NCBI GenBank assembly: GCA_964429555.1
Contig: CAYSDD010000002.1
Coordinates: 1 to 46,710, forward strand
Reading direction: 5' to 3'
DNA length: 46,710 nt
Origin: an uncultured Syntrophaceae bacterium
Lineage (GTDB): Bacteria > Desulfobacterota > Syntrophia > Syntrophales > UBA2192
In this document: positions 2,460 through 44,734 of the stretch, one piece after another
Layout of the letters: the number at the start of each line of letters is the position of its first letter
Numbering within the stretch: position 1 is the stretch's first letter
Made by a program: the position numbers and the translations under genes
Notes under the pieces: generated by a model
Databases searched by the model: none
The model's input: the letters and a program-made list of their open reading frames with translations, nothing else
What the model was told of the DNA's origin: nothing

Positions 2460-2460
2460 G

Positions 2461-4096
<1,636 letters not shown>

Positions 4097-9501: not shown

Positions 9502-9503
9502 TG

Positions 9504-9610
9504 GAAGAAGAAGGTGAGACGCTGAGAGGGTAAGAAGGTCGGAGAAGCAGAGGGCGCGACACCTGCCACCGGTTTATCCAACCTTCTCACCGTCTCAACC
9601 TCTTCCCTTC
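9504..9610 (+). repeat. Dispersed hairpin repeat, copy 1 (8-nt periodic arms)
   Basis: 5' arm GAAGGTGA GACGCTGA GAGGGTAA GAAGGTCG GAGAAGCA. 3' arm CCAACCTT CTCACCGT CTCAACCT CTTCCCTT. 39 of 42 nt of the 5' arm are identical to 45749-45790. Confidence 0.85.
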
Positions 9611-9683
9611 GTGAAGACAGGGGAAGAGAAAAAGACAGAGGGGCTCGACAACCGGGCAAGAGCCCTTCGACGCAGAGGGACTG

Positions 9684-10013
9684 ATGCTCTACATGATTCT
9701 CCTGATCCTGTTCCTGCTGTGCCTCGGGGTGGTGGCCTCGAGCTTTCTCGCCGGCTTTTCCGCCGCGGAAAAGCGCCCCGCCTTCTACCGGGACGAGCGG
9801 TTCCGGAAGCGCATGGAGTGGTTTCTCGCCCCCGTGATCGCCCTGCTGATCGGGCTTATCAACATCAGCCTCGACTACACGATGATCCTGGCGGGCCCCG
9901 CGGTTCTCGTCTCGGGGATCTTCCTGCGCCCGGTCTCGGAGGCCCTGATCGTGGAGCCGATCTTCCGTCTCTATTCGAAGGGAAAGGGGAATGGAAAAAC
10001 ACAAAACGGGTAA
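9684..10013 (+). CDS. Hypothetical small membrane protein
   Basis: 109 aa with three hydrophobic segments and non-GC-artefact composition. No family recognised. Overlaps the next gene by 23 nt. Confidence 0.45.
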   Translation: MLYMILLILFLLCLGVVASSFLAGFSAAEKRPAFYRDERFRKRMEWFLAPVIALLIGLINISLDYTMILAGPAVLVSGIFLRPVSEALIVEPIFRLYSKGKGNGKTQNG

Positions 10014-16913: not shown

Positions 16914-17600
16914 TCAGTCCCCGCGGGGCCGGCGGCCGCGGTGGTCCTCGTCCTGGATGGCCTGGAACTCACGGTCTGCGATCTCCAGGAGGCCCGCCAG
17001 GGCCGCCAGGCGGCGCCGCGTGGAGGCCGGCATGGCCCGCACGGACTTGTACTGGATGTCGTGCTCGATCTCGGCCCAGGCGTGCTGCAGGATCGTCCGG
17101 ACCTGGATCTCGGCGACGAGCCCCCGGAAGCCCTCCCGGTCGGGCCGGTCGGTCTCCTCCGGCGGCAGCTCCACCAGGTAGTGCACGCTCTGATACCCGA
17201 ACCGCCCGGAGGCCTGGAGCGTCTCCGACTTGTTGTCCCTCTCGAGCACGAAGAACCGCTCCCGGATGACGGCATCGATCTCGGACACGGTCCGGGGAAA
17301 GAACGTGATGACCCGCACGCCGGCCAGGTCCGTCACCCACCGCAGGGGGTCCTCGACGGCCATCGAGGTCCTCTTCGCGGCCAGAATCCGAAGGATCTTC
17401 CTCTCCACGTTCTCCGGCGTCTTGGCCCGCGCCTCGATGGAGTGAATCCGGATGGAACGCTGCGCAATGCGCTCCAGGAGATCCTGGCGGATGATTCGGC
17501 AGAACGCCTCGTAGGCGGGCCGCAGCGACGCATAGCGCTGCAGGGCCCCGGAGAGGCGGGTTTCGGCCATCCCCGCGTGCATGCTCTTCAGGCTCCTCAT
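16914..17600 (-). CDS. Small RelA/SpoT-domain protein (small alarmone synthetase-like nucleotide pyrophosphokinase)
   Basis: DLAGVRVITFF, GYQSVHYLV and EIQVRTILQHAWAEIEHD synthetase motifs. ATG 17600 overlaps the ATPase stop as ATGA. No hydrolase (HD) domain. Confidence 0.8.
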   Translation of the reverse strand: MRSLKSMHAGMAETRLSGALQRYASLRPAYEAFCRIIRQDLLERIAQRSIRIHSIEARAKTPENVERKILRILAAKRTSMAVEDPLRWVTDLAGVRVITFFPRTVSEIDAVIRERFFVLERDNKSETLQASGRFGYQSVHYLVELPPEETDRPDREGFRGLVAEIQVRTILQHAWAEIEHDIQYKSVRAMPASTRRRLAALAGLLEIADREFQAIQDEDHRGRRPRGD

Positions 17601-20362: not shown

Positions 20363-20596
20363 CTTCTCCTCGGGGGCAGACGGCTTGCGGATACGGGGTT
20401 GCCGGTCTCGAACGACGGGCCTGGACGCGTCGGGGATTCCCCGGTAGCGGATGCCGGGGTCACGGGGGGCGGCAGAGAGCCCGGGCCCGGATACATGTCA
20501 GGCCGCAATCCGACGTCCGTCTGATGGCGGCCCGACCATCGGCAGATCACCTCCGGAATCGCGCTTCCGGACCCGTTTCCGTTCACTCGTTTCGAC

Positions 20597-28712: not shown

Positions 28713-29300
28713 TCAGAGGTTGATCACCCGGCCCGACGTCATGAGGGCCGTGACGATCTCGTGCATGTTGGAGACCTTGCCGACCCGGAGCTTCTCCTTG
28801 ATGCCGAAGAAGGCCAGGCAGGTGCCGCAGGAGAGGATCTCGACTCCCTCCCTGTCCAGGAGCGCCAGGCTCTCGAGGACGTCGGAACCCTCGGTGGTGA
28901 GAAAGACCCCTCCGTTGATGAAGATCACCTTGTCCGGTCTCGGCTGGGAATCCCAGAGCGTGTTGAGAAAGGCCTTCATGAGGATCGCGCCCAATTCGTC
29001 GGAGCCCTTGCCGAAGACGTCGGTCGTGATGCAGACCACGGTCGGTCCCTCCGCGGCTCCGGCCTGCGCCGCGAGGCTGCAGCCCGCCTGCTTCGTGATG
29101 GTGAGGGCATAGGCGCCCTCCTTCTCCGCCACCGTGACCTCGCAGCCCCGGCTGGCCGCAAACCGCTTCACGTTCTCCCGGCTCTCGGGGCTGTCGACGA
29201 GGACCGTCACGGTCCCTTCGGGAATGGCCTCCAGGGCTTTCTTGGTGTTGATCACGGGCTGCGGGCAGGCAAGCCCCCGGCAATCGATTTCCCTCGTCAT
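28713..29300 (-). CDS. yedF: Sulfurtransferase-like selenium metabolism protein YedF (TusA-like N-domain plus DsrE-like C-domain)
   Basis: MTREIDCRGLACPQPV... preceded by AAAGGAGGA with a 9-nt spacer. C-terminal LSCGTCL...VSNM typical of YedF. Confidence 0.85.
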   Translation of the reverse strand: MTREIDCRGLACPQPVINTKKALEAIPEGTVTVLVDSPESRENVKRFAASRGCEVTVAEKEGAYALTITKQAGCSLAAQAGAAEGPTVVCITTDVFGKGSDELGAILMKAFLNTLWDSQPRPDKVIFINGGVFLTTEGSDVLESLALLDREGVEILSCGTCLAFFGIKEKLRVGKVSNMHEIVTALMTSGRVINL

Positions 29301-29436
29301 GGCGATGATCCTCCTTTCCCCGTCATGGACGGTCGCATTTTCCATAATCCCCTTTCATAAATCAAATGGATTCGTGGCATGTCAGCCTGCTGCGGCCCTC
29401 CCGCGGCAGGCGGGCCCACTTATAACGATTATCTAT

Positions 29437-29465
29437 TTGACAGATAGCCATTGTTTATGTATGGA
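29437..29465 (+). promoter_or_regulatory. Candidate promoter for the activase operon, overlapping an ATC-N9-GAT dyad
   Basis: TTGACA (29437-29442), 17-nt spacer, TATGGA (29460-29465). The dyad ATCTATTTGACAGAT (29431-29445) fits the LysR T-N11-A pattern. Confidence 0.45.
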
Positions 29466-29528
29466 ACCGGATCGAGTTCGGGCGGCGCGGGCCCGGGAAT
29501 GCTCCCGCCTCGGGAGGGTGAACAGGCG

Positions 29529-30275
29529 ATGAAGGGGATCGGGCTGGACATCGGTTCACGGACCATCAAGCTCGTCGTCTGCGAAAACGGCAGCATGACG
29601 ATGAAGCGCAAAGAGGTGAACACCTACGACCCCCTCACCCTGTGCCGGGAGATGCTGAATGGCTTTGAGGCAGAGCGTATCATCGCGACGGGCTACGGGC
29701 GCCATCTGCTCAAAGGATATCTCCAGTGCGAAACGATCAGTGAGATCAAGGCCTTCGCACTGGGAGCCCTTGCCCTCTGCGGCTCCTGCCGGACGGTCCT
29801 GGACATCGGCGGCCAGGACACGAAGGCCATCTCCCTGGACGAAAACGGGAGAATCCTCAAATTCCAGATGAACGACAAGTGCGCCGCCGGGACCGGGCGC
29901 TTCCTCGAGGTCATGGCCACGGCGCTCGGGCTTTCCCTGGAGGATTTCATGGCGGCGGCGGCCGCCGCCGAAGAACCCGAGTCGGTCAGCAGCATGTGCG
30001 CGGTCTTCGCCGAGTCGGAGGTGATCTCCATGATCGCCCGCGGTGCGCCGCGGCCGGGGATCGCACGGGGAATCCACCAATCCGTCGCCCGGCGGGCCGT
30101 GTCCCTGCTCGAGAAGGTATCGATTCGCGAGGACATCCTGTTTGCCGGCGGCGTCGCGCTGAACCCCTGCATGCGCGCGCAGATCGAGGAGCATCTCGGC
30201 CGGCGCGTCATGGTGCCCGGTGACCCGCAGATCGTGGGCGCTCTGGGGTGCGCGCTGATGGCCTCGGAGGCATGA
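29529..30275 (+). CDS. BadF/BadG/BcrA/BcrD-type ATPase: (R)-2-hydroxyacyl-CoA dehydratase-type activase
   Basis: MKGIGLDIGSRTIKLVV, LDIGGQDTKAI, NDKCAAGTGRFLE, MCAVFAESEVIS, FAGGVALNP. Confidence 0.9.
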   Translation: MKGIGLDIGSRTIKLVVCENGSMTMKRKEVNTYDPLTLCREMLNGFEAERIIATGYGRHLLKGYLQCETISEIKAFALGALALCGSCRTVLDIGGQDTKAISLDENGRILKFQMNDKCAAGTGRFLEVMATALGLSLEDFMAAAAAAEEPESVSSMCAVFAESEVISMIARGAPRPGIARGIHQSVARRAVSLLEKVSIREDILFAGGVALNPCMRAQIEEHLGRRVMVPGDPQIVGALGCALMASEA

Positions 30276-30281
30276 AGCAGC

Positions 30282-31490
30282 ATGGCTAATCAGCACTCGG
30301 CACACGAGAAACAGCGGATCCCGTCGGGCCCCGCGAGTTCGCAGGCGGAACCCCTCCTGTGTGACGGCTTCCACGCCGACCCCGCCGGACGCATCCTCAG
30401 CTGCATCCTGTCGAAGCGGGAACAGGGTTCACCCGTCATCGGCCTGTACTGCGGGTACGCCCCTCTGGAGCTGGTCCGGGCCATGGGCGCCGTGCCCGCC
30501 TTCCTCTGCGCCGCCTCGGGCCGGACGATCCCCGCCGCCGAGGCGGTCCTTCCCGCCAATCTCTGCCCGCTGATCAAGTCGAGTTTCGGGTTCATCCGGA
30601 CGAAATCGTGCCCCCTCTACGAGCTTGCCGACGCCGTCATCGGCGAGACGACCTGCGACGGGAAGAAAAAGATGTTCGAGCTGATCGCCCCGCTCAAGCC
30701 GACCCACGTCATGGATCTTCCCTACAGGCCCGATGAGGAAGGGACCCTCGCACGCTGGACGCAGATGGTCCGCAAGCTCAAGAGATTCCTCGAGGAAACC
30801 TTCGCTCGTGCGATCCCGGAGGAACGGATCGAGGCCGAGATCCGGGAAACGAACGCGAAATGCCGGCTCATCGACCGCGTCTTCGATTACGCCGCCCTGG
30901 CGCGGCCGGCCATCCACTGGAGCGAACTGCTCGATGTGATCGGGTTCGAGCCCCTCACCGGCTGCGAGGAATTCCGCCGGTTCGTGGAGCCCGCGCTGGA
31001 ACGGCTCGAGGCCCGCGCCGTTCGCGGCATCGGTTTCGGGCGGCCCGGCGCGCCGCGCGTTCTGGTCAGCGGCTGCCCGATCGGGGGGGAAGCGAAAAAG
31101 GTCCTGCGCCTCATCGAAGAGGCGGGGGGCGTCGTCGTCGCCATGGAGGGATGCAGCGGCATGAAGGGATATTCCATCCGAATCGACGAGGGGACCGGCG
31201 ACCCGCTCGGGGCCGTGGCCGCGGCAACCCTGAAGATCCCCTGCTCCTGCATGACGCCCAACCGGGGGCGGTTCGACGCCCTCGACGAGATGATCGCCCG
31301 GTACCGGCCGGATGCCGTCATCGACGTCATTCTTCAGGCCTGCCACACCTACAACATCGAGTCCCACCGGATCGGGCGGCACATCCGCGACCGGCACGGG
31401 CTGCCCTTTCTGAAAGTCGAGACGGACTATTCCGAATCCGACATCGAGCCGCTGCGCACCCGCATCGAGGCCCTGCTCGAGAGCTGCTGA
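30282..31490 (+). CDS. 2-hydroxyacyl-CoA dehydratase / BcrB-superfamily protein, single-subunit (double-cubane-cluster reductase-like)
   Basis: 402 aa. GLYCGYAPLELVRAMGAVP, CPLIKSSFG, ETTCDGKKKMFE, SGCPIGG, ACHTYN. Only one large subunit is paired with the activase. Confidence 0.8.
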   Translation: MANQHSAHEKQRIPSGPASSQAEPLLCDGFHADPAGRILSCILSKREQGSPVIGLYCGYAPLELVRAMGAVPAFLCAASGRTIPAAEAVLPANLCPLIKSSFGFIRTKSCPLYELADAVIGETTCDGKKKMFELIAPLKPTHVMDLPYRPDEEGTLARWTQMVRKLKRFLEETFARAIPEERIEAEIRETNAKCRLIDRVFDYAALARPAIHWSELLDVIGFEPLTGCEEFRRFVEPALERLEARAVRGIGFGRPGAPRVLVSGCPIGGEAKKVLRLIEEAGGVVVAMEGCSGMKGYSIRIDEGTGDPLGAVAAATLKIPCSCMTPNRGRFDALDEMIARYRPDAVIDVILQACHTYNIESHRIGRHIRDRHGLPFLKVETDYSESDIEPLRTRIEALLESC

Positions 31491-31511
31491 GCGCCCTGTG
31501 CTTCCGAAGGC

Positions 31512-31811
31512 TCAGTCGAGGGCCGTCACTTCGCCCGGAGGGAATCCCCCCTTCTCGAGCCTCTCCCGGATCGTTTCGATGCTCGTCCTTTTGTCGTCGA
31601 AGGTGACCGTCGCCTCTCGGGTGAAGGCGTTGACGTCATGCTTCACCACGCCCGGGGTCGTCCGGAGGATGAAGTTGACCTGCGGCACCGTGGAGGGGCA
31701 GTCGCAGGCCTCGATCTTGAGCCGGATGGTCTTTTCGGCCGCAGAGGCGTCCGGCGCCGCGGCGAGGGCCGTGAGTGCGAGCAGGACGGTGAGAACGTGC
31801 AGCGTCTTCAT
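31512..31811 (-). CDS. Secreted HMA (heavy-metal-associated)-like domain protein with CxC in place of CxxC
   Basis: 99 aa. Signal peptide MKTLHVLTVLLALTALAAAPDASA. IRLKIEACDCPSTVPQV...GVVKHDV...ATVTFD. ATGA overlap with the upstream gene. Confidence 0.65.
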   Translation of the reverse strand: MKTLHVLTVLLALTALAAAPDASAAEKTIRLKIEACDCPSTVPQVNFILRTTPGVVKHDVNAFTREATVTFDDKRTSIETIRERLEKGGFPPGEVTALD

Positions 31812-32173
31812 CGCGGACCTCCCGTTGATTCCGATTGCTCCGCAGAACAGTCGCGGATGAAACGAGCCAGTTCCTCTTCGTTCAACCCCGCCCCGCGCCT
31901 GCCGTCCAGGCGCCGGGCGACGGCACCCTTGCGAAAGAACAGCACGGTCGGAAAGATCTCGATCGCCCAGGGGTCCGACAGCGTGTCCCCGTCGTCCTGC
32001 ACGAGAGCGAACCGCCCCGGGTCCCGTGCGTGATTCTCGAACACGGGCAGGAACCTGCGGCTGTAGGGGCACCAGGAGGCGTAGAACAGGGCGAACAGCT
32101 CGTCTCGGGAGCGCAGGAGCGCCTCGAGATCCGGCGCGCTCGTAACCCGGGGGATTTGGGATGTTTCTTCCAT
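31808..32173 (-). CDS. Thioredoxin-fold protein with monothiol WCPYS motif
   Basis: SD AAAGGAG 8 nt before ATG 32173. LFALFYASWCPYSRRFLPVF...IFPTVLFF. Confidence 0.7.
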   Translation of the reverse strand: MEETSQIPRVTSAPDLEALLRSRDELFALFYASWCPYSRRFLPVFENHARDPGRFALVQDDGDTLSDPWAIEIFPTVLFFRKGAVARRLDGRRGAGLNEEELARFIRDCSAEQSESTGGPR

Positions 32174-32236
32174 CACGCGTTCTCCTTTCCTGGGCTGTCG
32201 AGCCCGTTCGTCCGGGGCCCGCGACGGGGGTCGGCA

Positions 32237-33457
32237 TCACCCCTGAGCGATTCCCAGCACGTCCCGGCAGAGGATCTGCAGGTCACGAAGCTCGGCCCGC
32301 TGCCGGGGCTCGAGTCGCTTGGGTACCCCGGCGGCCCCGAGGGACCGGTTGATTCGCCGGGCCGCGGCGAAGAGGTGCGCGAGGGCCTCCGGGATGTTGA
32401 AATCCCGATGCATCGCCTCGCGGAACCGCACCCCGAGTTCGGTCGTGGCCCCCGCAACCCGGGCTTCTCCTTCCCCGTCCGCCCCGCAGCGCCCGGCAAG
32501 GCCGGAGAGCCGATCGAGGGCCGCGGCCGCCTCCCCGAGCCGCCGCTCCGTCAAGTCCACGGGTCGACGGTAATGCGTCGAGAGGAGGAACAGCCGGATC
32601 GCCCCCGGCCGATGATGCCGGAGCAGGTCGCGGATCCGTCCGCCCCGGTCCTCGGATTTTGAAAGCTTCCTCCCCTTGAGCGTCACCAGTTCGTGATGGA
32701 GCCAGTACCGGGCGAGGTCCGTCCCGTCGAGGCTGCGCGAAAGGGCCCTCTCGTTTTCATGATGGGGAAAGATCAGGTCCCGGCCTCCGCCGTGGATATC
32801 GAACAGGCTGCCCAGGTGCCCGCGGCTCATGGCAACGCATTCGATGTGCCACCCCGGCCGGCCTCTCCCCCAGGGGCTCTCCCAGGCGACCGCATCCCCT
32901 TCGGCCCTCTTCCAGAGGGCGAAGTCCCGCCCGTCCTCCTTGGGGCCGCCCGGTCCCGACCGCAGCCCCGCATCGACGCCCGCGGCGTCCGCGAGGCGAC
33001 CGTAGTCGCCCCGCAGGCGGACCCGGAAGTAGACGCCGTCCTCGCGCACGTAGGCCTGCCCGTCGTCGATGAGCCTCGCGATCGCCTCGAGGATCGGCCC
33101 GATCCGTTCCGTCACGCGCGGCTCGAAATCGGGTGCGAGGACCCCGAGGGCGGCCATGTCCTCCCGGTACGAGCGGATGTAGCGGTCGGCGAGATCCCCG
33201 GCTGCGATCCGCTCGGTTCCCGCCCGTGCGAGGATCTTGTCGTCGAGATCCGTGAAGTTCCGCACGTACCGGACGGCATACCCCTCGAACCGCAGGAAGC
33301 GGACGACCACATCGAAAAAGACCGCCGACCGGGCGTGGCCGACGTGGGCGTGGTCATAGACCGTGGGCCCGCAGACGTAGATTCCGATATGCCCCGGCCG
33401 GATCGGGACAAACGGCTCGAGCGACCCCGTCAGGGTGTTCCAGAGACGCAGCGGCAC
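32237..33457 (-). CDS. cysS: Cysteine--tRNA ligase family protein lacking the C-terminal anticodon-binding module (406 aa)
   Basis: [17 protein letters not shown] (HIGH), [23 protein letters not shown] (Zn ligands), KLSKS. Ends about 50 aa after [12 protein letters not shown], where E. coli CysRS continues for roughly 60 more residues. GTG start 4 nt after the selB stop, with GAGGGAG as SD. Confidence 0.85.
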
Positions 33458-33461
33458 CGCC

Positions 33462-35390
33462 CTACTCCCTCAGCACGCGCTCGTTGCCGCGGCGCTCGGT
33501 GAACCCGATCGCGTCGAGATGCTCGAGAAGGGGCAGGCCGATCGTGCGGCCGCACCCGAGGACCGGGTTGCAGTCCGCGGGCGTGAAGCGACCCTGTTTT
33601 GCAATCCAGGCGCGGATGCGGTCCTTGGCCGTTTCCAGGCCCCGCCGCGAAATGTAGCGCTCGCCGCCCAGCATCACGACGTGTCTCTTCGAGACCAGGT
33701 GTCCGAGGAGGCGCCTGACCTTCGGCTTCTCGTCCGGGAGACCCAGGGCCGCGCTGATCACGGCGACCGTGACGGTGACGGTGCCCGCGCGCTCGACCGC
33801 CTCGAGCACGCGCGCGAGCAGGGGATCCCGAAGGGATCCCAATCTCCGGTGCATCTCCGAAAGAGCATACCCTCCGTTGACGGACGCCAGGACCCCCTCG
33901 CGGACCAGCTCCCCGAGCAGGAAATCCAGGGCCCCGGGCTCCAGGTTCCAGGGGATCGATGCGGCGATGTGCGACTTGCTGATCTGATCGCGCAGGGTGT
34001 CCTCGGCAAGCGTCCGTTCGACGGCCTCCGCGATCTTGCGCTTGGCCTCCTGCGCGGTTTCCGCCGAAAGGAAGGAGCCGGCGTCGAGGGGAACGAGGAA
34101 CCCCGCCTCGCTCTGCCTTTTCAGCACGTTCTCGAAGACGGCGCGATCCAGTCCCGTGGATCGGCTCAGCCCCTCCGCGGTCAGTACGGCGGCGGGCTGC
34201 GCGGCGGCGGCGGCCTTCACGATCCGCCCCGGATCGCCCGTTTGCAGCCCGGTCAAGTAGGCAAGGGTCCTCTCCGCACGCGCCCGCCGGAACTTGACCC
34301 TCGTTGTCTCGAGGATCGTGCCGCCGCCGAGCACGGAAGGGCTGTTCATGGGCGTCATGATGCATCGATCCCGGGGAGCCGCACCGAGCGGTGCCGTGAG
34401 CCGGAATTGCACCAATCCCCTCTGCCCGGGGACGAGTTCCTCCCGGCCCATGATCACCGCCAGAGCCGACCCGACTGCACTGCCGACGTGCACCTTGACC
34501 CTCTGGCCGCTGCGGAGGGGCTGCCCGGAAAGGCGGCACAGCTCCAGCTCGACATTCAGGTAGGCGGCCGCCTCGAGGCACCCCGGCTCCGAGAGGACCA
34601 TTCCCCGGGCGATTTCCCCCGCCCCGACCCCCTGCAGGTTGATCCCGACCCGAAGGCCGGCGGAGGCGGACTCCACGGCGTTGTGATGGGACTCCAGAGA
34701 CCGCACGCGGACCGTCTTCCCGCCCGGGACGATCTCGAGCCGGTCTCCCGCCCGCACGGTGCCCGACAGGATCGTCCCGCTCACCACGGTGCCCAGGCCC
34801 TGGAAGATTCGAACCTGGTCGACGAACATCCGGAAGGGTTTCGAGGAGGCCTTGCTCCGGATCCCCGCCGCGGCCATCCCGTCCAGGACCGCCAGGACTT
34901 CATCCCGGCCCCGCCCGTCGATGCCGGAAAACGGGATGACCGGCCCGTTTTCGAGGAACGACCCCGCCGCGAGTTCCTCGATGTCCAGGGCGGCCATTTC
35001 CAGGGTCTCCCGGTCGACCAGGTCGGCCTTTGTCAGCACGGCGAAGCCGGCCGTGACGCCGAAGAAGCGCAGGATCTCCAGGTGCTCCCGCGTCTGGGGC
35101 ATGACCCCGTCGTCGGCCGCCACCGCCAGGATCGCCGCATCGACGGCGCTCAGCCCCCGGATGGTGTTCTTCATGAAATCCCGGTGGCCGGGCACGTCGA
35201 CCAGGCTGACCCGCAGGCCCGACGGCAGCACGAGCGGGGCGATGCCGAACTCGATGGAGAGGCCCCGGGCCTTTTCGACCTGCATCCGGTCCGTGTCGAC
35301 GCCCGTCAGGGCGGCGACCAGCGTCGTCTTGCCGTGGTCGACATGCCCGGCGATGCCGACCGTGTAATGTCTCTGCATGATTGCGCCCAT
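33462..35390 (-). CDS. selB: Selenocysteine-specific elongation factor SelB family
   Basis: 642 aa. GHVDHGKTTL, DVPGHRDF, TKADL. C-terminal winged-helix region ...LLEHLDAIGFTERRGNERVL matches the E. coli SelB C-terminus. The domain II pocket motif reads FVDQVRIF instead of AIDRAF. Confidence 0.85.
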   Translation of the reverse strand: MGAIMQRHYTVGIAGHVDHGKTTLVAALTGVDTDRMQVEKARGLSIEFGIAPLVLPSGLRVSLVDVPGHRDFMKNTIRGLSAVDAAILAVAADDGVMPQTREHLEILRFFGVTAGFAVLTKADLVDRETLEMAALDIEELAAGSFLENGPVIPFSGIDGRGRDEVLAVLDGMAAAGIRSKASSKPFRMFVDQVRIFQGLGTVVSGTILSGTVRAGDRLEIVPGGKTVRVRSLESHHNAVESASAGLRVGINLQGVGAGEIARGMVLSEPGCLEAAAYLNVELELCRLSGQPLRSGQRVKVHVGSAVGSALAVIMGREELVPGQRGLVQFRLTAPLGAAPRDRCIMTPMNSPSVLGGGTILETTRVKFRRARAERTLAYLTGLQTGDPGRIVKAAAAAQPAAVLTAEGLSRSTGLDRAVFENVLKRQSEAGFLVPLDAGSFLSAETAQEAKRKIAEAVERTLAEDTLRDQISKSHIAASIPWNLEPGALDFLLGELVREGVLASVNGGYALSEMHRRLGSLRDPLLARVLEAVERAGTVTVTVAVISAALGLPDEKPKVRRLLGHLVSKRHVVMLGGERYISRRGLETAKDRIRAWIAKQGRFTPADCNPVLGCGRTIGLPLLEHLDAIGFTERRGNERVLRE

Positions 35391-35452
35391 CGACGGTCAG
35401 ATTCCTGCGGCTCTCTCCGGCACGCGGCGCCGGCCGGCCGCTTTGCATGCGA

Positions 35453-35544
35453 TGGAAGGGGCAAGGGGAATCGAACCTCCTCCTCGTTGCTGAGACGAGG
35501 CCAACGGATTTGAAGTCCGCGGGGTGCCCAGCACCATTGCCCCT
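35453..35544 (-). tRNA. selC: tRNASec-like (selC-type) tRNA, anticodon UCA, 8-bp acceptor, 4-bp bulged T stem, long variable arm, discriminator U73, encoded CCA
   Basis: Hand fold of the minus strand: AGGGGCAA UG GGUG-CUGGG-CACC CC GCGGA-CUUCAAA-UCCGU UGG CCUCGU-CUCAGCA-ACGAGG A GG(A)GG-UUCGAUU-CCCC UUGCCCCU U CCA. Anticodon at 35511-35513. Confidence 0.8.
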
Positions 35545-35848
35545 GTCCTGTGCCGTCTTCTCCCCGTCCGTGCCGCGCGTCGATCGGACGCCCCGGGGCG
35601 GCACAGGCGGGGAAGCCGCTGCGTTGCACATCGTTCTTTGCCGGATTCGTCGGGGGGAAGATCCCGTTCGCCTGCCCTTGCCGCAGGCAAACAGGACGAG
35701 GGTCTCATCTTGCAGGCGGGCAAAAGGCGGGCGGCATCAACGCGGGAACCGCACGAGTCCCCGATTGCGTCGATCAGCTCCGTAACAGTCGAATCGGCAT
35801 GTTCGTGACCATCCGGTCTTTCCGTGTCAAGGGTCTTGCGCTCATCCG

Positions 35849-35878
35849 CTATTAACGGGAAACCCTTCGGGCTGTCAA
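35849..35878 (-). promoter_or_regulatory. Candidate sigma70 promoter upstream of the tRNA(UCA)-selB operon
   Basis: Minus strand TTGACA (35878-35873), 18-nt spacer, TAATAG (35854-35849). About 300 nt upstream of the tRNA 5' end. Confidence 0.4.
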
Positions 35879-35999
35879 GTTAAAAATAACTTTTCTACAT
35901 CTCATCTATGCACAGATTGAATGTTGACGGCGGGGTCCCGGTCCGGGGGCCCGCCGCGAAGGGGCGGCGGTCGCACCCCGGCGTTTTCGCGCAGCCGGC

Positions 36000-37394
36000 T
36001 TATTCCGTCCCCCGCAGCGTGTCGAGCAGGAAGGCGCGCAGCCGGCCGTAATCGGCGGGAAGATCCACGGGCTCGCCGGTTCGCTTCTCGAGGTCCCTCA
36101 TGCTCTGCGGTACCTCGGGGGTGATCCCCAGCAGCTCGATGATCTCGTCGGGGAACTTGGCGGGGTGCGCCGTCTCGAGGCACACGCAGGGCTCTGCGAT
36201 GGGCCCGCAGCAGGCCTCCAGGTAGTGCTCGAGGCCCCGCCAGCCCACGGCCCCGTGGGGTTCCAGCAGCACCCGGTGCCGCTCCCAGACGCGCCGGATC
36301 GTTTCCTTCGTTTCCTCGTCGGAGACGCTCACGGAGAAGATGCGCCGGCGCATCTCCGCCAGGTCGGGGTAGGCGTGCACGATGCCCGTTCGGTCCACCG
36401 TGCCCCCGTAGAGCTCGAAGAACCGGGCCAGGTTGCTCGGGTGGCCCACGTTCATGGCGTTGGAGAGGCAGGCCCGCGACGGTGAGACCTTCCGGTAGAC
36501 CCCCGTCCTGAGGTAGCTGGGAAATTCGTCGTTTTCGTTGGTGGGCATGACGAGCATCCGGACGGGAAGCCCCATGCGCCGGGCGTACTCGCAGCCCAGG
36601 GCGTTGCCGAAATTCCCCGAGGGGACGGAGAAGACGATCTCCTCGCCCGGGGCGGCCAGCTGGGCGTAGGCATAGACGTAGTAGATGCTCTGCGGCAGGA
36701 TCCGGCCGAAGTTGATGGAGTTGGCCGAAGTGAGGTTGAGCCCCGCGAGCCCCGGGTCGGCGAAGGCCTGCTTGACGAGGTTCTGGCAGTCGTCGAACTT
36801 GCCGTCCACGGACAGGGCGAGGACGTTGCCGCCGATCGTGTCGAGCTGCTTCTTCTGCATGCCGCTCACTTCGTTTCGCGGGTAGAGGATATAGACGCCG
36901 ATCCCCTCGACGCCCTTGAAGGCCTCGCCCACGGCGCTGCCCGTGTCGCCCGAGGTGGCCACGAGCACATTGAGGCGCCTGCCCGGATCGCGCAGGCGGC
37001 TCATGAGCCTCGCCATCATCCGGGCGGCGAAGTCCTTGAAGGAGGCCGTCGGCCCCCGGTCCAGGCGCATGATGTAAACGCGGTCGTGGACCCGCTCCAG
37101 GGGAACATCGAAGTTGTATGCATCGTCCACGACCTGCCGGATCGCCTCCCGGGGCAGCTCGTCCTTCAGGAACGCCTCGGCCACGAGGAGGGCCGTCTCC
37201 GGGTAGGGCCGCCCCTTGCAGGCCAGCACCTCGCTCACGGCAAGCGTCGGGATCGGCTCGGGCATGAAGAGCCCCTCGTCGGGCGCCTGGCCCCGGATCA
37301 GGGCCTCGCGGAAGGAGACCTGCCCCGTGAACGGCGTGAGGCCGCCCACCCCCTCGAGGCGGCGGTTCGTGCTGTAGTAGAGGATTTTCGTCAT
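36000..37394 (-). CDS. thrC: Threonine synthase (E. coli/yeast-type long form)
   Basis: 464 aa. VSFREALIRGQAPDEGLFMP, PTASFKDFAARMM (PLP Lys), TSGDTGSA, TSANSINFGRILPQ. Confidence 0.85.
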   Translation of the reverse strand: MTKILYYSTNRRLEGVGGLTPFTGQVSFREALIRGQAPDEGLFMPEPIPTLAVSEVLACKGRPYPETALLVAEAFLKDELPREAIRQVVDDAYNFDVPLERVHDRVYIMRLDRGPTASFKDFAARMMARLMSRLRDPGRRLNVLVATSGDTGSAVGEAFKGVEGIGVYILYPRNEVSGMQKKQLDTIGGNVLALSVDGKFDDCQNLVKQAFADPGLAGLNLTSANSINFGRILPQSIYYVYAYAQLAAPGEEIVFSVPSGNFGNALGCEYARRMGLPVRMLVMPTNENDEFPSYLRTGVYRKVSPSRACLSNAMNVGHPSNLARFFELYGGTVDRTGIVHAYPDLAEMRRRIFSVSVSDEETKETIRRVWERHRVLLEPHGAVGWRGLEHYLEACCGPIAEPCVCLETAHPAKFPDEIIELLGITPEVPQSMRDLEKRTGEPVDLPADYGRLRAFLLDTLRGTE

Positions 37395-37398: not shown

Positions 37399-38334
37399 TT
37401 ACCTCTTTGCGAGCGGTTCCGGGCGGTAGGCCCGGATGAAATCGAGAAAGATCCGGTGGTGCGCCATCAGGTCGAAGTGCCTGCGGTGAATGACGTAAAA
37501 GAAGCGCTCGACGGGGCAGCCCTCGATGGGCAGCGCGGCAAGGATCCCCGAGGCGATCTCCCTCCGGACGGCGTAGATGGAAATCACGGAAAGGCCGACG
37601 CCGGCGATGACGGCCTCCTTGACCGCCTCGGAGCTCCCCATCTCGGCAACGACCCGAAACCGGGACAGGTCCGTTTTGCCGGCCTCGGCAAGGCACCGCT
37701 CGAAGGCGTCGCGGGTGCCCGAGCCCCGCTCGCGGATCACGAAGGGCTCCTTCTCGAGCTCGCGGACACGGACGGTTTTCCTCTTCGCCCAGGGGTGCGC
37801 CGCGGGAACGGCCAGCACCATCCGGTCCCGCCAGAGCGGTTCGGCCGCCAGCTTCGCGCCGGCGGGCTCCTTGCCGATGAAGCCGATCTCGGCGCCGTTC
37901 TCCAGGACCGTCTCGATGACCTCGCTGCTGTCGGCCGCCCGCACGGCGGTCCGGATCGCGGGGAATTTCTCCCGAAACGCAGCGATCGCCGGGGGCAGGA
38001 TGTAGGTGGCCGGGATCGTGCTGGCGGCGATCCGGATGTCCCCCTCCTCGGCGGCGCGCGCCCGCATCACCCGCTCCATGGCCTCCTCGCGCAGCTTCAG
38101 GATCCGCCGGGCGTAGTCGTACACCACGCGCCCCTCGGGCGTCAGCGTGAAGGCGCGGCTCGCGCGGTTGACCACCTTCGCCCCCAGGGCGTCCTCGAGG
38201 TTGCGGATGTGCTTCGTGAGCGACGGCTGGGAGAGGTACATCCTCCTGGCCGCCCGGCTGAAGCTGCGTTCCTCGACGAGGTGCACCAGGGCCTCGAGCT
38301 GCAGCATGTTGACGTTTTTCATCTCGGCCTGCAT
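37399..38334 (-). CDS. LysR-family transcriptional regulator (selenium-cluster associated)
   Basis: 311 aa. HTH LQLEALVHLVEERSFSRAARRMYLSQPSLTKHIRNLE. Divergent from yedE. Its stop is 4 nt before the thrC ATG. Confidence 0.85.
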   Translation of the reverse strand: MQAEMKNVNMLQLEALVHLVEERSFSRAARRMYLSQPSLTKHIRNLEDALGAKVVNRASRAFTLTPEGRVVYDYARRILKLREEAMERVMRARAAEEGDIRIAASTIPATYILPPAIAAFREKFPAIRTAVRAADSSEVIETVLENGAEIGFIGKEPAGAKLAAEPLWRDRMVLAVPAAHPWAKRKTVRVRELEKEPFVIRERGSGTRDAFERCLAEAGKTDLSRFRVVAEMGSSEAVKEAVIAGVGLSVISIYAVRREIASGILAALPIEGCPVERFFYVIHRRHFDLMAHHRIFLDFIRAYRPEPLAKR

Positions 38335-38467
38335 GGCCTGTCCCTACCATGACCCTTTTCGATAATCAAGAAGCATTTATGAATTATTGGAATTGGCGTT
38401 ATTCAGAAAAGAAGGGTAATAAAAAAGCGCTTTCCTCATCCCAGACCCTGTGAAGGAGGACCCCGGT

Positions 38468-39541
38468 ATGGGCAACCCGTTTGCATCCCGCGCGGGAATC
38501 ATCGTCGTCGGCGTTGCCATCGGCATCATGGCAACGCTCCTGCAGTACTTTGGCAACCCCCCGAACATGGGCATCTGCGTGGCCTGCATGGAGCGCGACA
38601 TTGCGGGCGCCCTGGGCCTGCACCGGGCCGCCGTCGTGCAGTATCTTCGCCCCGAGATCATCGGCTTCGTGATCGGGGCCTTCCTCGCCGCCCTGCTCGC
38701 GAAGGAGTACCGGCCCCGCGGGGGGTCGGCGCCGCTCGTGCGCTTCTTTCTCGGCGTCTTCGCCATGATCGGCGCACTGGTGTTCCTGGGCTGCCCCTGG
38801 CGGGCGCTGCTGCGGCTTGCGGGGGGCGACTGGAACGCCCTCACGGGCCTCGCGGGCCTGGCGACGGGCATCGGCGTGGGCGTCGCCTTCCTCAAATCGG
38901 GCTACAGCCTGGGCCGCGCCCAGCCGCAGAAGGCGGCGTCGGGTATCCTCTTCCCCGTCTTCATGGCCGGGCTCTTCCTGCTGCTCGTCTTCCGGGTGAC
39001 CTTCGCCGAGGGCGGCCCCCTCTTTTTCAGCCAGAAGGGTCCGGGGTCGCAGTTCGCCCCCGTCTGGATGAGCCTGGGCGCCGGGGTGCTCGTCGGGGCC
39101 ATCGCCCAGCGCAGCCGGTTCTGCACCATGGGGGCCCTGCGGGACGTCATCCTGCTGAAGGATTTCCACCTCATGAGCGGCGTGGCGGGTCTGCTCGTCG
39201 CCGCCTTTGCCATGAATCTCATCCTGGGGCAGTTCAAGCCCGGTTTTGCAGGCCAGCCGATCGCCCACACGGACCATCTCTGGAATTTCCTGGGGATGGC
39301 GCTCGCGGGCCTGGCCTTCGCGCTGGCCGGCGGCTGCCCGGGCCGCCAGCTGTTCCTCTCCGGCGAGGGGGACCTCGACGCGGGCATCTTCGCCCTGGGC
39401 ATGATCGTCGGGGCCGGCGTGTCGCACAACTTCGCCATGGCCAGCTCGCCCGCCGGCGCCGCCGCCTTCGGGCCGGCCGGCGTCATCGTGGGCTTCGTCT
39501 TCTGCCTGGCCGTGGGGTTCACGATGCGGGAGAAGGCCTGA
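38468..39541 (+). CDS. yedE: YedE-family putative selenium/sulfur-compound transporter
   Basis: GAAGGAGG 8 nt before ATG 38468. GNPPNMGICVACMERDIAGALGLH, FCTMGALRD, about 9 TM segments. Confidence 0.85.
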   Translation: MGNPFASRAGIIVVGVAIGIMATLLQYFGNPPNMGICVACMERDIAGALGLHRAAVVQYLRPEIIGFVIGAFLAALLAKEYRPRGGSAPLVRFFLGVFAMIGALVFLGCPWRALLRLAGGDWNALTGLAGLATGIGVGVAFLKSGYSLGRAQPQKAASGILFPVFMAGLFLLLVFRVTFAEGGPLFFSQKGPGSQFAPVWMSLGAGVLVGAIAQRSRFCTMGALRDVILLKDFHLMSGVAGLLVAAFAMNLILGQFKPGFAGQPIAHTDHLWNFLGMALAGLAFALAGGCPGRQLFLSGEGDLDAGIFALGMIVGAGVSHNFAMASSPAGAAAFGPAGVIVGFVFCLAVGFTMREKA

Positions 39542-39590: not shown

Positions 39591-39803
39591 ATGAGCGCAA
39601 CGCGAATCGATGCCCGGGGCCTTTCCTGCCCCCAGCCCGTCGTCCTGACCAGCAGGGCCATCGAGGGCGGGGCGGAGAGCCTGGAAGTCCTCGTCGACAA
39701 CGAGGTGTCGAAGGAAAACGTGCTTCGCCTGGCGAAGCGGCACAAGATGCAGGCCTCGGTCCGTCCGGAAGGGCCCGATATTGTCATCGAAATCAAAAAG
39801 TAG
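39591..39803 (+). CDS. TusA/SirA-family sulfurtransferase-like protein
   Basis: 70 aa. IDARGLSCPQPVV motif. SD AAAGGAG. Confidence 0.85.
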   Translation: MSATRIDARGLSCPQPVVLTSRAIEGGAESLEVLVDNEVSKENVLRLAKRHKMQASVRPEGPDIVIEIKK

Positions 39804-39864: not shown

Positions 39865-40410
39865 ATGCGGAGATTCATGTTTTTCAAATCCGGCAAAAAG
39901 AACGGTTTCGAGGGCGGCGGGCTCGTCCTGTTCGAAAGCGTGGAAGAGGCCATGAGCGGCGAGCGGGCCCTGAAGGCGGGAGAATTCGAGACCCGTCTCG
40001 TGGCGCCCCCGCCCGAGCTCAGGCGGGGCTGCGATCTCGCCCTGGAGATCAACCTCGTGGAAAAGCCCGCCGTCGAGCGGGCGCTGCAGGAGCGCGAGGT
40101 CCCCTTCCTCGACATCCTGCCCATCCGGGGCGACGCGGAGCTTCTCCAGGTCGTCAAGGTCACCGACTTCGGCGAGGCCCTCATGGTCAAGGCGGGCAAC
40201 ATGAAGCTCACCTTCGACAAGGCCTCGGGCGTCGTCCTGAACATCTCGGGCGGCGGCTGCCCCGACATCCCCTACCTGCACGCCGAGATGCTGGCCAAGC
40301 CGCTGGAGCAGGCGCCGCGGCCCAAGGCCATCGGCCGCACGCTCTGCGCCCTCATGCTGGACCGCGCCTGGGAGCAGTCGCTCGAAATCCGGAAGAACGG
40401 CAACGGGTGA
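39865..40410 (+). CDS. DUF3343 (putative Se/S carrier)-like domain fused to an uncharacterised Cys-containing C-terminal domain
   Basis: N-terminal LVLFESVEEAMSGERALKAGEFETRLVAPPPELRRGCDLAL. C-terminal half has ISGGGCPDIPY and TLCALMLD. Alternative start ATG 39877. Confidence 0.65.
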   Translation: MRRFMFFKSGKKNGFEGGGLVLFESVEEAMSGERALKAGEFETRLVAPPPELRRGCDLALEINLVEKPAVERALQEREVPFLDILPIRGDAELLQVVKVTDFGEALMVKAGNMKLTFDKASGVVLNISGGGCPDIPYLHAEMLAKPLEQAPRPKAIGRTLCALMLDRAWEQSLEIRKNGNG

Positions 40411-40414: not shown

Positions 40415-41320
40415 ATGCTGCTCGTCTGCGGAACCGCCCCGCTCAAAGAGCTCCCGCTGACCGAGGGGGAGGCGGGGCTCGACGGGGACATCCTGCGCGT
40501 CGGCGGTGCCGGGATCCCCTGCACGCAGGGCACGGCGGCCCTGGTGAGCGCCGCCTGCAAGACGCTGGACTACCTGGGCCAGCCCGCGCCCCGGGTGCTG
40601 CTCGTGGGCGACGACGGCACCGGCAAGGGCAGCCGGCAGCTCTACGAGCGCCTGATCGAGGATCTGCCCCGCCTGGCCCCCCGGGTCGTCGTGCTGCACT
40701 ACATGCTGCCCGTCATGGGGCTCATGCGCAGGGTGAGCGAGTCGGCCTCCAAGGCGCCTCGGCGCCCCTTCATGATCGCCGATGCCGCGGCCATGTACGC
40801 CGCCAAGGCGGCGGGGATCGCCCGCGAGTTCGACCTCTTCACGCCGGACCTCTCGGAGCTGGCCTTCCTGGCGGACCCGCAGGCCACCCACCCGGCCTAC
40901 GTGAGCCGGCACCTCTTCGAGTCGGACAGCACGCGCATCCCCGAGATGGTCGCGGCGGCCTACGCCAACGGGAGCGCCGCCCGGACGCTCGTCGTGAAGG
41001 GCGCCACGGACCACATCGCGCAGGAGGGCAGGATCCTCGACACCCTGTCGGAGCCGGACATCCCGGCCCTCGAGGCCATCGGCGGTACGGGGGACACGAT
41101 CAGCGGCATGGTGGGGGCCCTCGTGCACGCCGGGTACGACGAGGTCACGGCGGCCCGCGTCGCCGTTCGGGCCAACCGCACGGCCGGGCTCTACGCCGGG
41201 GCCACGCCGGCCACGCGGATCCGGCAGGTCATCGAGGCCCTGCCCCGGGTCTTCGCCGATCACCTCGACGGGTGGGTGCGGCAGGCGCAAATCGAAAGAG
41301 CGGAAAGGAGCGCACCGTGA
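40415..41320 (+). CDS. Ribokinase-fold protein, YjeF C-terminal / NAD(P)HX-dehydratase (NnrD)-like
   Basis: 301 aa. LFTPDLSELAFL, LVVKGATDHIA, EAIGGTGDTISGMVGAL resemble NnrD motifs. Its stop overlaps the selD GTG (GTGA). Confidence 0.6.
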   Translation: MLLVCGTAPLKELPLTEGEAGLDGDILRVGGAGIPCTQGTAALVSAACKTLDYLGQPAPRVLLVGDDGTGKGSRQLYERLIEDLPRLAPRVVVLHYMLPVMGLMRRVSESASKAPRRPFMIADAAAMYAAKAAGIAREFDLFTPDLSELAFLADPQATHPAYVSRHLFESDSTRIPEMVAAAYANGSAARTLVVKGATDHIAQEGRILDTLSEPDIPALEAIGGTGDTISGMVGALVHAGYDEVTAARVAVRANRTAGLYAGATPATRIRQVIEALPRVFADHLDGWVRQAQIERAERSAP

Positions 41321-42369
41321 CGACGGAAAAGAAGATCCGCCTGACGGAGATGGTCCACGGGGCCGGCTGAGCGTGCAAGATCGGTCCGGAGGACCTGAGC
41401 CGAGCCCTGGAGGGGCTTCCCATCATCGCGGACCCCAACCTGATCGTCGGCCTCGAGGGCAACGAGGACGCGGGCGTCTACCGTCTGCGCGACGACCTGG
41501 CCATCATCCAGACGGTCGACTTCTTCACGCCCATCGTCGACGACCCCTACACCTTCGGGCAGATCGCCGCGACGAATTCCCTCTCCGACGTCTACGCCAT
41601 GGGCGGCCGGCCGATCACGGCCCTGAACATCATCTGCTTTCCGCCGAAGAAGCTCGACATGTCGGTCCTGCAGGCGATCCTGCGCGGCGGGCTGGACAAG
41701 ATGACGGAGGCGGGCGTCGTGCTCGTCGGGGGCCACAGCGTGGAGGACGACGAGCCGAAATACGGCCTCTCCGTGACGGGCGTCATTCACCCCGACCGGG
41801 TCCTGCGCAACCGCGGGGGCCGGCCCGGAGACAAACTGATCCTGACCAAGGCGCTCGGCACGGGCATCGTCAGCACGGCGATCAAGGGGGAGGAGGCCGA
41901 CCCGGCCCTCGTCGAGAAGGCCGTCCGGGCCATGACGACCCTGAACCGGCAGGCCGCCGAGCTGATGACGCAGATGCCCGTCATCCACGCCTGCACGGAC
42001 GTGACGGGGTTCGGCATGCTGGGGCACGCCTGCGAGATGATCGAGGGAAGCGACGTGGGGTTGACGATCGACGCCGCGGCCGTCCCCTGCTTCGAGGGGG
42101 TGCGGGAACTCGTGGAAAGCGGCTACGTGCCGGGGGGGCTCTACCGCAACAAGAACTTCCGGATGCCGATGATCGACGTCGAGCCGTCGTGCCCGGAGTG
42201 GCTGCTGGAGATCCTCTTCGACCCCCAGACCGCGGGCGGCCTGCTCATCGCCCTGCCGGCGGGGGACGCGGAAACGCTTGTCCGGCGCATGCGCGAGGCC
42301 GGGATCGGGGATGCGGCCGTGGTGGGCGAAGTGGTCGCCGCGCCGAAGGGGAAGATCATCGTCCGGTGA
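41317..42369 (+). CDS. selD: Selenide, water dikinase (selenophosphate synthetase) with in-frame UGA = selenocysteine at 41368-41370
   Basis: GTG 41317 after GGAAAGGAG. Translation VTTEKKIRLTEMVHGAG-U-ACKIGPEDL... aligns with E. coli ...[21 protein letters not shown] (UGA at the Cys17 position). Same frame as track ORF 41599..42369. 350 codons. Confidence 0.9.
41381..41398 (+). promoter_or_regulatory. Candidate SECIS hairpin 10 nt downstream of the selD UGA
   Basis: UC-GGUCC-GGA-GGACC-(U)-GA: 7 bp with a bulged U and a small apical loop. Hand fold only. Confidence 0.35.
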
Positions 42370-43582: not shown

Positions 43583-44734
43583 TCAATATGTCGATTCGCA
43601 CCCGTCGAGGGCCCGGCGGATCGTCGCACCGCCGAGCACGACCCCGCCGCCGTACAGGACAACCGATTGACCCGGCGTCACGGCCTCCTGCGGCTCGTCG
43701 AAGACGACCGTGAGGGAGCCGGGGCCCGTTTCGACCCGGCAGGACGCAGGCCGGTGCGCATAGCGGATCTTCGCATGCGCCGCAGCCGGCAGGGCATCGA
43801 CCAGGAGGTTCGGCTCGCCGGCCTCGAGACCCCTTGAAAGAAGGTCCTCCTTCGGGCCCACCACGACGAGATTTTCCGCCGGGTCGATGGAAAGAACATA
43901 CAGGAGATCCCCCCGCCCGGCCGAGAGGCGGGCCCGCTGGCCGATCGTGTAGCGGCCGATCCCCCGGTGCGTGCCGACGACCCGGCCCCGGCGGTCCACC
44001 ATCCTGCCGGGGCCCATGCCGGGCAGGCGGGCTTCGAGGAACGGCCCGATCGCGCCCCGGGGGATGAAACAGATGTCCTGGCTGTCGCCGCGCTGCGAGA
44101 CGGGCAGCCCGGCACGCCTGGCCAGTTCACGGACTTCCTGCTTCGTGTGTTCCCCGAGCGGGAAATGGATGTGCCCGAGGGCTTCCCGCCGCACCCGGCA
44201 GAGAAAGTAGGTCTGGTCCTTCCTGCGGTCCTTCGGCACGGCGAGGGCCGGCTTGCCTCCCCGCATCACGATCCGGGCGTAGTGCCCCGTGGCCAGTCCC
44301 CCGTATCCCAGCTGCCGGGCCTTTTCGAGAAGCATCCCGAACTTGATGTCCCGGTTGCACAGCACGCAGGGGTTCGGGGTCCTGCCCTGGCGGTACGCCT
44401 CCAGGAAGGGCTCGATCACGACCCGCTCCAAATCGTCCGTGAAATCGACCGCGTGGTGGGGGATCCCGAGAAGTCGGCACACCCCCGCCGCCTCTTCCAC
44501 ATCCCCCCAGCCGTAGCCGGCGGTGCCATCGGCTTTCCTGAAGAGGGTGAGCCCCGCGATGTCGAGGCCCCGTTCAGCAAGAAGCAGCGCCGCCACGGAA
44601 CTGTCAACCCCGCCGCTCATCGCGACGAGGATTTTCCCGGCCGCGTCCCGCCCGCGGCGGGAGATCTCCTCGCCGAGGCAGGGGGTCTTCCTGTCCTGAT
44701 ACGCGCCAACGTCCGTCATGACCCGCACACTCAC
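43583..44734 (-). CDS. mnmA: tRNA-specific 2-thiouridylase
   Basis: ILVAMSGGVDSSVAA PP-loop, NPCVLCN, ATGHYAR. The start is uncertain (44734 or 44719). Confidence 0.9.
   Translation of the reverse strand: MSVRVMTDVGAYQDRKTPCLGEEISRRGRDAAGKILVAMSGGVDSSVAALLLAERGLDIAGLTLFRKADGTAGYGWGDVEEAAGVCRLLGIPHHAVDFTDDLERVVIEPFLEAYRQGRTPNPCVLCNRDIKFGMLLEKARQLGYGGLATGHYARIVMRGGKPALAVPKDRRKDQTYFLCRVRREALGHIHFPLGEHTKQEVRELARRAGLPVSQRGDSQDICFIPRGAIGPFLEARLPGMGPGRMVDRRGRVVGTHRGIGRYTIGQRARLSAGRGDLLYVLSIDPAENLVVVGPKEDLLSRGLEAGEPNLLVDALPAAAHAKIRYAHRPASCRVETGPGSLTVVFDEPQEAVTPGQSVVLYGGGVVLGGATIRRALDGCESTY

Follow-up and report, generated by a model that had tools for sequence, protein, structure and literature searches.

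We have analysed a stretch of 46,710 nucleotides from an uncultured Syntrophaceae bacterium (GenBank assembly GCA_964429555.1, contig CAYSDD010000002.1, positions 1 to 46,710 of the forward strand), which we call the window. On its minus strand lie, in this order, a tRNA gene with the anticodon UCA, a gene for a SelB-family elongation factor (selB*), a gene for a short paralogue of cysteinyl-tRNA synthetase (cysS*, encoding CysRS*), which is the main subject here, a small thioredoxin-fold gene, and an open reading frame (ORF) of 99 aa. The tRNA-selB*-cysS* operon sits within a selenium-utilisation island, and the coordinates of the features are collected in Table 1. The start of selB* is 62 nt downstream of the tRNA gene. 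For the next junction, an original prediction made from the sequence alone had put 4 nt between the selB* stop and the GTG start of cysS*, and had located the Shine-Dalgarno sequence within selB*. Direct reading of the letters confirms this layout: AGGGAG (33470-33465) is followed by the selB* stop TAG (33464-33462), the spacer GGCG (33461-33458) and the GTG (33457-33455), which leaves 7 nt between the Shine-Dalgarno sequence and the start codon. In addition, 31300-36100 has been scanned for sigma-70 promoters and terminators: promoters are not detected, and neither is any credible terminator from the tRNA to cysS*.

The order tRNA(UCA)-selB*-cysS* is kept in six other loci, labelled L007, L008, L087, L088, L089, and L090, and these have been compared with the window as a set of seven.

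The cysS* product belongs to the CysRS family. Pfam places tRNA-synt_1e at residues 16-310 (E 4e-106) and DALR_2 at residues 344-403. The NCBIfam cysS model TIGR00435 gives 396.6 bits against a cutoff of 340, yet it is matched at model positions 1-377 of 466 only, so the architecture of a housekeeping CysRS is incomplete. HVGH is found at residues 38-41 and KLSKS at 264-268, while the zinc ligands C29 (in YVCG), C207 (in HIEC), and H232 and E236 (in HHENE) align to C28, C209, H234, and E238 of the E. coli enzyme. All of these motifs and ligands form invariant columns in an alignment of 21 sequences (A1). That is, the catalytic hallmarks of class I CysRS and the zinc ligands are all kept, as had been predicted. 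Judged by its sequence, the product is unambiguously a CysRS, and the alignment shows its cysteine-activating site to be intact.

What is missing lies at the C terminus. Residues 3-372 of the window protein align to residues 2-369 of E. coli CysRS (1LI5/1U0B, 461 aa), from which it follows that the window protein ends near E. coli residue ~403 of 461. Compared with E. coli CysS, ~55-60 C-terminal residues, which constitute the CysS_C alpha/beta domain, are absent. A Pfam scan of the 406-aa protein gives no match to CysS_C (PF23493). The domain is present in full-length relatives, for instance at residues 431-471 of the protein P0022. Three short relatives that were scanned lack it, as does every short relative according to precomputed Pfam lists. 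The AlphaFold model of the window protein (mean predicted local distance difference test, pLDDT, 89.4; predicted template modelling score, pTM, 0.90) has a C terminus of three helices and no strand past residue 255. Superposed on 1u0b_B, it gives a template modelling (TM) score of 0.89 on the query and 0.79 on the 461-residue target, and the lower value on the target is expected if the target carries an extra domain. The original prediction had described an enzyme without its anticodon-binding C-terminal module. The loss is borne out by the Pfam scan, by the end of the E. coli alignment, and by the helices that close the model, with the caveat that only the alpha/beta module reading GCA is gone and the helical DALR_2 bundle is retained. 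We take the missing module to be the one that makes base-specific contacts with GCA, as in the 1U0B complex and in line with its Pfam name, 'Cysteinyl-tRNA ligase anticodon binding domain'.

Upstream of selB*, a tRNA with U73 and the anticodon UCA had been predicted, and both features are found: U73 and the pair A1:U72 can be read in the sequence, and ARAGORN calls a selenocysteine (Sec) tRNA with UCA. The Rfam tRNA-Sec model gives 53.7 bits against a gathering score of 47. In standard numbering the acceptor stem has 8 bp, from A1:U72 through A8:U65, and CCA is encoded. The D stem has 5 bp, the anticodon stem 6 bp with one bulged U and the loop CU-UCA-AA, the long variable arm 6 bp, and the T stem 4 bp, broken by a bulged A that is the equivalent of A51a. 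We have built this 8/4 cloverleaf manually, and all 29 of its 29 pairs form in the sequences of all seven loci (100% paired). When it is shifted by 1-3 columns, pairing drops to 46-60%. Two compensatory changes are seen: in L089, C:G replaces U12:A20, and in L090, U:A replaces A29:U37.

Overall, the tRNA is 97% identical across the seven loci, although the CysRS* proteins are only 48-75% identical. U73, UCA, the 8-bp acceptor stem and the T stem with its bulged A are invariant in the seven, and A1:U72 is found in six. The remaining tRNA (L008, 258-349), from a metagenome-assembled genome labelled 'uncultured Bacteriovoracaceae bacterium', has G1-U72 and is otherwise identical. The window tRNA is almost identical to that of the Desulfococcus sp. 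locus (L090).

The gene between the tRNA and cysS* encodes a SelB-family factor. SelB* scores 289 bits with the selB model TIGR00475 (cutoff 242), and Pfam finds GTP_EFTU, domain 2 (D2), and SelB-wing_3 at residues 595-640. Its alignment with E. coli SelB runs over the full length of both, and its C-terminal winged helix is matched to the end of the E. coli protein that binds the selenocysteine insertion sequence (SECIS).

We have further placed the window protein among its relatives. In a protein search, the best matches are short CysRS of 392-455 aa without CysS_C, and full-length enzymes come next at 50% identity or less. A neighbour-joining (NJ) tree was calculated from 118 CysRS (21 short and 97 full-length, sampled as the top matches) over 400 shared columns with 200 bootstraps. 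All 21 short forms fall into one clan apart from the 97 full-length enzymes (99% bootstrap), although NJ is a distance method and long-branch attraction may affect this clan: the short forms are long-branched, with a mean corrected distance to the full-length enzymes of 0.93, compared with 0.63 among the full-length enzymes. Within the clan, the 16 sequences nearest to the window form one subclade (99.5%), and five of the Desulfococcus/Desulfobacterales type form its sister group (85%). Common ancestry of the short forms is also backed by derived motifs that they share, HH[EG]LV in place of HNGFV and NGRK in place of xxEK before [LM]SKS, as well as by the shared operon. Taken together, the tree and the motifs show, at the level of sequence comparison, that the window CysRS* shares ancestry with the CysRS* of Desulfobacterales.

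The two groups differ at the CP1 position (CP, connective peptide). Canonical enzymes carry [EM][AS]G[AS] there, and the Desulfococcus type carries PAVS or PTLS, corresponding to the PTVS of the literature. The window subclade has T[AV]GF, and the window protein itself has DAGL with a deletion of three residues just before it. As a separate observation, P0017, a short CysRS that shares a 90% cluster with a 412-aa protein from a contig as long as that of L008 (43,543 nt), has RHAS at this position in alignment A1.

The closest genome, within a collection of species representatives, is Syntrophaceae bacterium PtaB.Bin038 of the order Syntrophales, annotated as Thermodesulfobacteriota. Its CysRS* is 75%, its SelB* 81%, and its flanking genes 87-93% identical to those of the window. 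The exact window CysRS* is encoded by at least 14 metagenome contigs, which come from several Joint Genome Institute (JGI) samples, and a cluster member of at least 90% identity by 21 more.

A system of this composition has been described before (Mukai et al., Nucleic Acids Research 2017, PMC5389517). There, selC* tRNACys are tRNASec-like, carry U73, and have either GCA or UCA as their anticodon; those of delta-proteobacteria have a modified 8/4 structure with the bulged A51a. The tRNA gene is followed by a second copy of selB (selB*) in Syntrophobacterales and Desulfobacterales, and within Desulfobacterales one subgroup also has a second copy of cysS (cysS*) after selB*; the genomes with selC* also carry a separate canonical selC (PMC5389517). 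The CP1 motif faces base pair 1:72 and reads PTVS in Desulfococcus biacutus, compared with MSGA or EAGA in canonical enzymes. When a D. tiedjei CysRS was made to mimic CysRS*, by deletion of the domain that binds the anticodon (ABD), with PTVS introduced into CP1, it let the D. biacutus tRNA suppress the UGA of a SECIS-less selD reporter, dependent on A1:U72 and on the 8-bp acceptor stem; the variant in which the ABD alone was deleted gave weaker opal suppression (PMC5389517). Reviews of 2020, 2022, and 2024 repeat this account, with a characterisation of CysRS* still missing. They predict that CysRS* charges only the selC* tRNA(UCA), and posit that the system serves under selenium scarcity. 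According to the literature, genomes with CysRS* also encode a canonical CysRS.

The original prediction, an anticodon-blind CysRS that serves a U73 tRNA(UCA) together with a SelB-like factor, coincides with this published model (PMC5389517). Compared with the CysRS* of D. biacutus and Desulfonema limicola, the window has the same C-terminal truncation of CysRS, the same gene order and translational coupling to a SelB paralogue, the same tRNASec-shaped tRNA with A1:U72, U73, and UCA, and a protein that groups with theirs at 99% bootstrap. It is very probable, then, that the window gene is a member of the CysRS* family of the 2017 system. On the other hand, the window protein is only ~48% identical to the Desulfococcus CysRS*, falls in the sister subclade, has DAGL with the three-residue deletion instead of PTVS or PAVS, HHENER instead of HHENEI, and KLSKS, and is encoded in an operon embedded in a selD(UGA)/yedE/yedF island. 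Compared with E. coli CysS (1LI5/1U0B; TIGR00435), the fold, the HIGH and KMSKS motifs, the zinc site, the stem-contact (SC) fold, and the helical bundle are the same (42-43% identity, TM 0.86-0.89), while the C-terminal residues are lost, the CP1 loop is changed, the branch is long, and the gene is linked to a UCA tRNA and is not a stand-alone housekeeping gene. A further known case, as described in reviews that cite it, is the tRNACys of Desulfotomaculum nigrificans (Vargas-Rodriguez et al., RNA Biology 2018), which is likewise tRNASec-shaped, carried by SelB and not by EF-Tu, and places Cys at a Sec UGA; it has a GCA anticodon and is charged by the normal CysRS, and there is no dedicated truncated synthetase or SelB copy, unlike in the window.

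The distribution of cysS* is also broader than the main text of the 2017 paper gives it. That text reports Syntrophales, the order of the closest genome, with selC*-selB* and without cysS*. Since cysS* is found in the Syntrophaceae-labelled PtaB.Bin038 and in metagenome contigs, its confinement to a subgroup of Desulfobacterales, as given in that main text, is too narrow. New here are another deep CysRS* subclade, whose CP1 differs for the same kind of tRNA (A1:U72, U73), the presence of cysS* in a Syntrophaceae-labelled lineage, and a repeated link of the operon to selD(UGA) and to a double-cubane-cluster reductase.

The best overall explanation, which we consider likely, is that the window cysS* paralogue stands third, after the tRNA and selB*, in a unit for putative Cys insertion at UGA. 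As to the mechanism of Cys insertion itself, we hold it with reasonable confidence; the activity of the window CysRS*, its partnership with SelB*, and the target genes are what we infer. CysRS* would read the acceptor end (U73, A1:U72) of the co-encoded UCA tRNA, whose first acceptor base pair would lie opposite the remodelled CP1 loop, and would charge the tRNA with cysteine. The 8/4 tRNASec-like shape would steer Cys-tRNA(UCA) to SelB* instead of EF-Tu, and SelB*, with its SECIS-binding winged helix, would deliver it to a UGA followed by a SECIS hairpin, where cysteine would replace selenocysteine. The likely use would be to make Cys versions of selenoproteins under selenium scarcity.

For such a use, SelD (selenophosphate synthetase) is the obvious candidate target, since its own synthesis requires Sec at codon 18. 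A Sec-dependent SelD needs selenophosphate to be made, so a Cys-SelD would break the circle. In the window, the GTG start of selD overlaps the stop of the YjeF-like gene upstream. In L087, selD (9353-10390) is directly downstream of cysS*, also with an in-frame UGA. Starting 13 nt after the UGA of the window selD, a hairpin GGUCC-GGA-GGACC can form and can be lengthened beyond a bulged U; a comparable hairpin of 7 bp is found in L087. A scan of the window for in-frame TGA has revealed no credible UGA-containing gene besides selD. If the mechanism holds, the system would be a natural operon-encoded device to read UGA/SECIS as cysteine, and the linkage to selD(UGA) makes the idea of bootstrapping selenophosphate synthetase under selenium scarcity concretely testable. 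The divergent CysRS* orthologues also offer other candidates with which to begin the enzymology of CysRS*, and from which to develop orthogonal Cys/UGA pairs for synthetic biology.

Several points weigh against this explanation. The CP1 motif DAGL keeps the canonical A-G and is not of the PTVS type. As it is unlike the PTVS shown to matter for A1:U72 recognition, the specificity may differ in the window subclade. The amino acid pocket of SelB*, formed by D191, Q192, and R247, has been compared with that of the SelBs of known structure (E. coli, A. aeolicus, and M. maripaludis). In this comparison the Arg is always present and the position following the conserved Asp is variable (R, S, H, Q); the pocket of SelB* holds no informative difference from the others, and hence no sequence sign of a preference for Cys over Sec. 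The SECIS-like hairpins after the selD UGA, in the window and in L087, have folding energies no better than those of shuffled sequences. Of a canonical cysS and the canonical selA/selB/selC/selD set, the window holds selD only. In experiments, the native CysRS* of Desulfococcus was inactive in E. coli (PMC5389517), and the 2024 review notes that no native CysRS* has yet been shown to cysteinylate tRNA(UCA).

Among the other explanations, the least unlikely takes the tRNA as a genuine tRNASec, charged by SerRS and then converted by SelA, with an unrelated role for the short CysRS, regulatory or moonlighting for example. The calls by ARAGORN and Rfam, the long variable arm, and the D191 and R247 kept in SelB* all agree with it, and U73 can suit SerRS in allo-tRNAs (PMC5389517). 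However, U73 is invariant in the seven loci and always stands beside a CysRS gene, the nearly identical Desulfococcus tRNA gives Cys-dependent, A1:U72-dependent opal suppression only with a CysRS*-like enzyme (PMC5389517), and the published selC* genomes have a separate canonical selC. We regard this explanation as unlikely.

It is still less likely that the window CysRS* is the sole housekeeping CysRS of its genome, naturally short and charging tRNACys(GCA), with an incidental adjacency to selB and the tRNA. Such an enzyme would pass the TIGR00435 cutoff and keep all catalytic residues, as the window protein does, and no other cysS has been found within the 46.7-kb window. Against this explanation count the single long-branched clan of the short forms, the position of the gene directly after a SelB gene and a UCA tRNA in all seven loci, and the canonical CysRS reported beside CysRS* elsewhere. 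Loss of the ABD alone also made the D. tiedjei enzyme less active in opal suppression (PMC5389517).

Equally improbable, in our estimate, is that CysRS*, in place of or besides a role as a back-up for inserting cysteine, ligates free selenocysteine directly to tRNA(UCA), which would be a one-step, SelA-independent route to Sec-tRNA delivered by SelB* to UGA sites with a SECIS. The D191 and R247 kept in the SelB* pocket bear on this, as does the ring of selenium uptake and carrier genes around the operon. The Zn-thiolate selection of CysRS tolerates Sec, according to older work on the E. coli enzyme. The weakest explanation, raised as an alternative in the original prediction, is an MshC-like ligase that joins cysteine to a small-molecule amine in sulfur or selenium metabolism and charges no tRNA: MshC (cysteine:GlcN-Ins ligase of mycothiol synthesis) is also a truncated CysRS homologue, of ~410 aa without the anticodon-binding domain, the model has a TM score of ~0.83 to MshC structures, and the neighbourhood is rich in genes handling sulfur and selenium, but the MshC profile TIGR03447 gives 243.3 bits, half its cutoff of 485.1 and below the cysS score, identity to MshC structures is 32-34% compared with 40-43% to CysRS structures, MshC has no linked tRNA or SelB gene, and the window protein is strictly linked, in an operon kept in seven loci, to a dedicated tRNA that carries U73, the identity base for CysRS. 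By its annotation the closest genome belongs to Thermodesulfobacteriota, and mycothiol is, to our knowledge, an actinobacterial thiol. On profile score and genomic context we have rejected the MshC assignment, which we think has hardly any chance of being right.

Returning to the preferred explanation, Cys insertion at UGA by the tRNA-selB*-cysS* unit, the genes around the unit have been compared between the loci (Table 1). In L087 the order is yedE-tusA-DUF3343-yjeF-like-reductase-activase-yedF-tRNA-selB*-cysS*-selD. No neighbour of tRNA(UCA)-selB*-cysS* is more conserved than the double-cubane-cluster reductase, which is mostly accompanied by its activase (five of the seven loci); in L089 a copy stands on either side of the unit. 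Its link to the selenium genes may be meaningful.

Table 1 Features of the selenium-utilisation island in the window, and double-cubane-cluster reductase genes in the other loci
Feature	Coordinates	Strand	Details
YedF	28713-29345		TIGR03527
Acyl-CoA dehydratase activase	29451-30275	+	TIGR00241
Double-cubane-cluster reductase	30282-31490	+	NF040772, HGD-D family
99-aa ORF	31512-31811	-	Overlaps thioredoxin-like gene by 4 nt; signal-peptide-like N terminus; CDCPS motif
Thioredoxin-fold gene	31808-32176	-	CxxS motif (WCPYS); directly downstream of cysS*
cysS*	32237-33457	-	406-aa CysRS paralogue; Rossmann fold, connective peptide (CP) domain, SC fold, helical bundle; GTG start
SelB-family elongation factor (SelB*)	33462-35390	-	642 aa; TIGR00475, Pfam
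Shine-Dalgarno AGGGAG for cysS*	33465-33470	-	Read from sequence; within last selB* codons
selC*-type tRNACys(UCA), very probable assignment	35453-35544	-	92 nt; ARAGORN, Rfam
thrC-like pyridoxal phosphate (PLP) enzyme (threonine-synthase family)	36000-37394	-	TIGR00260, 239 bits
LysR regulator	37399-38334		'selenium metabolism-associated'
YedE	38450-39541		TIGR04112, 498 bits
TusA	39591-39803		
DUF3343 Se/S carrier	39865-40410		
YjeF-like kinase	40415-41320		
selD (selenophosphate synthetase)	41317-42369	+	TIGR00476; in-frame TGA at 41368-41370, codon 18, HGAG-U-ACK
Double-cubane reductase with or without activase, window	29451-31490	+	
Double-cubane reductase with or without activase, L087	3062-5079		
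Double-cubane reductase with or without activase, L088	4398-5678		
Double-cubane reductase with or without activase, L089	1469-2662, 6078-7244		
Double-cubane reductase with or without activase, L090	1-2813		

The thioredoxin-fold gene, which is probably on the same transcript as cysS*, is kept only in close relatives (L001-L006, L007, and L091-L094). The 99-aa ORF has no Pfam match and is conserved only in nearly identical contigs. The thrC-like gene, lying between the LysR regulator and the tRNA, is kept in L007 (88% identity) and in none of the other loci.

The thrC-like gene is separated from the tRNA by a minus-strand spacer of 455 nt (35545-35999), which is ~82% identical to the spacer of L007 and absent from more distant loci. 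It contains a conserved block at ~35850-35878, where TTGACA (~35873-35878) is followed after 17 nt by TTAATA; this block is seen only via the L007 alignment, and its -10 hexamer is poor. The same spacer has a conserved leader of ~330 nt with a hairpin GCCUGC...GCAGGC. These elements may represent a promoter together with a processed leader, or else a regulatory RNA.

Elsewhere in the window, the tRNA-modification genes queA, tgt, and an mnmA-like gene (tRNA 2-thiouridylase) are found at 1405-3776 (+) and 43583-44734 (-), and their presence is probably coincidental. In addition, an nhaA-I RNA (Rfam RF03057; 44.1 bits against a gathering score of 37) is found at 20522-20574 (-), just upstream of the gene for a 921-aa P-type cation-transporting ATPase at 17597-20362 (-).

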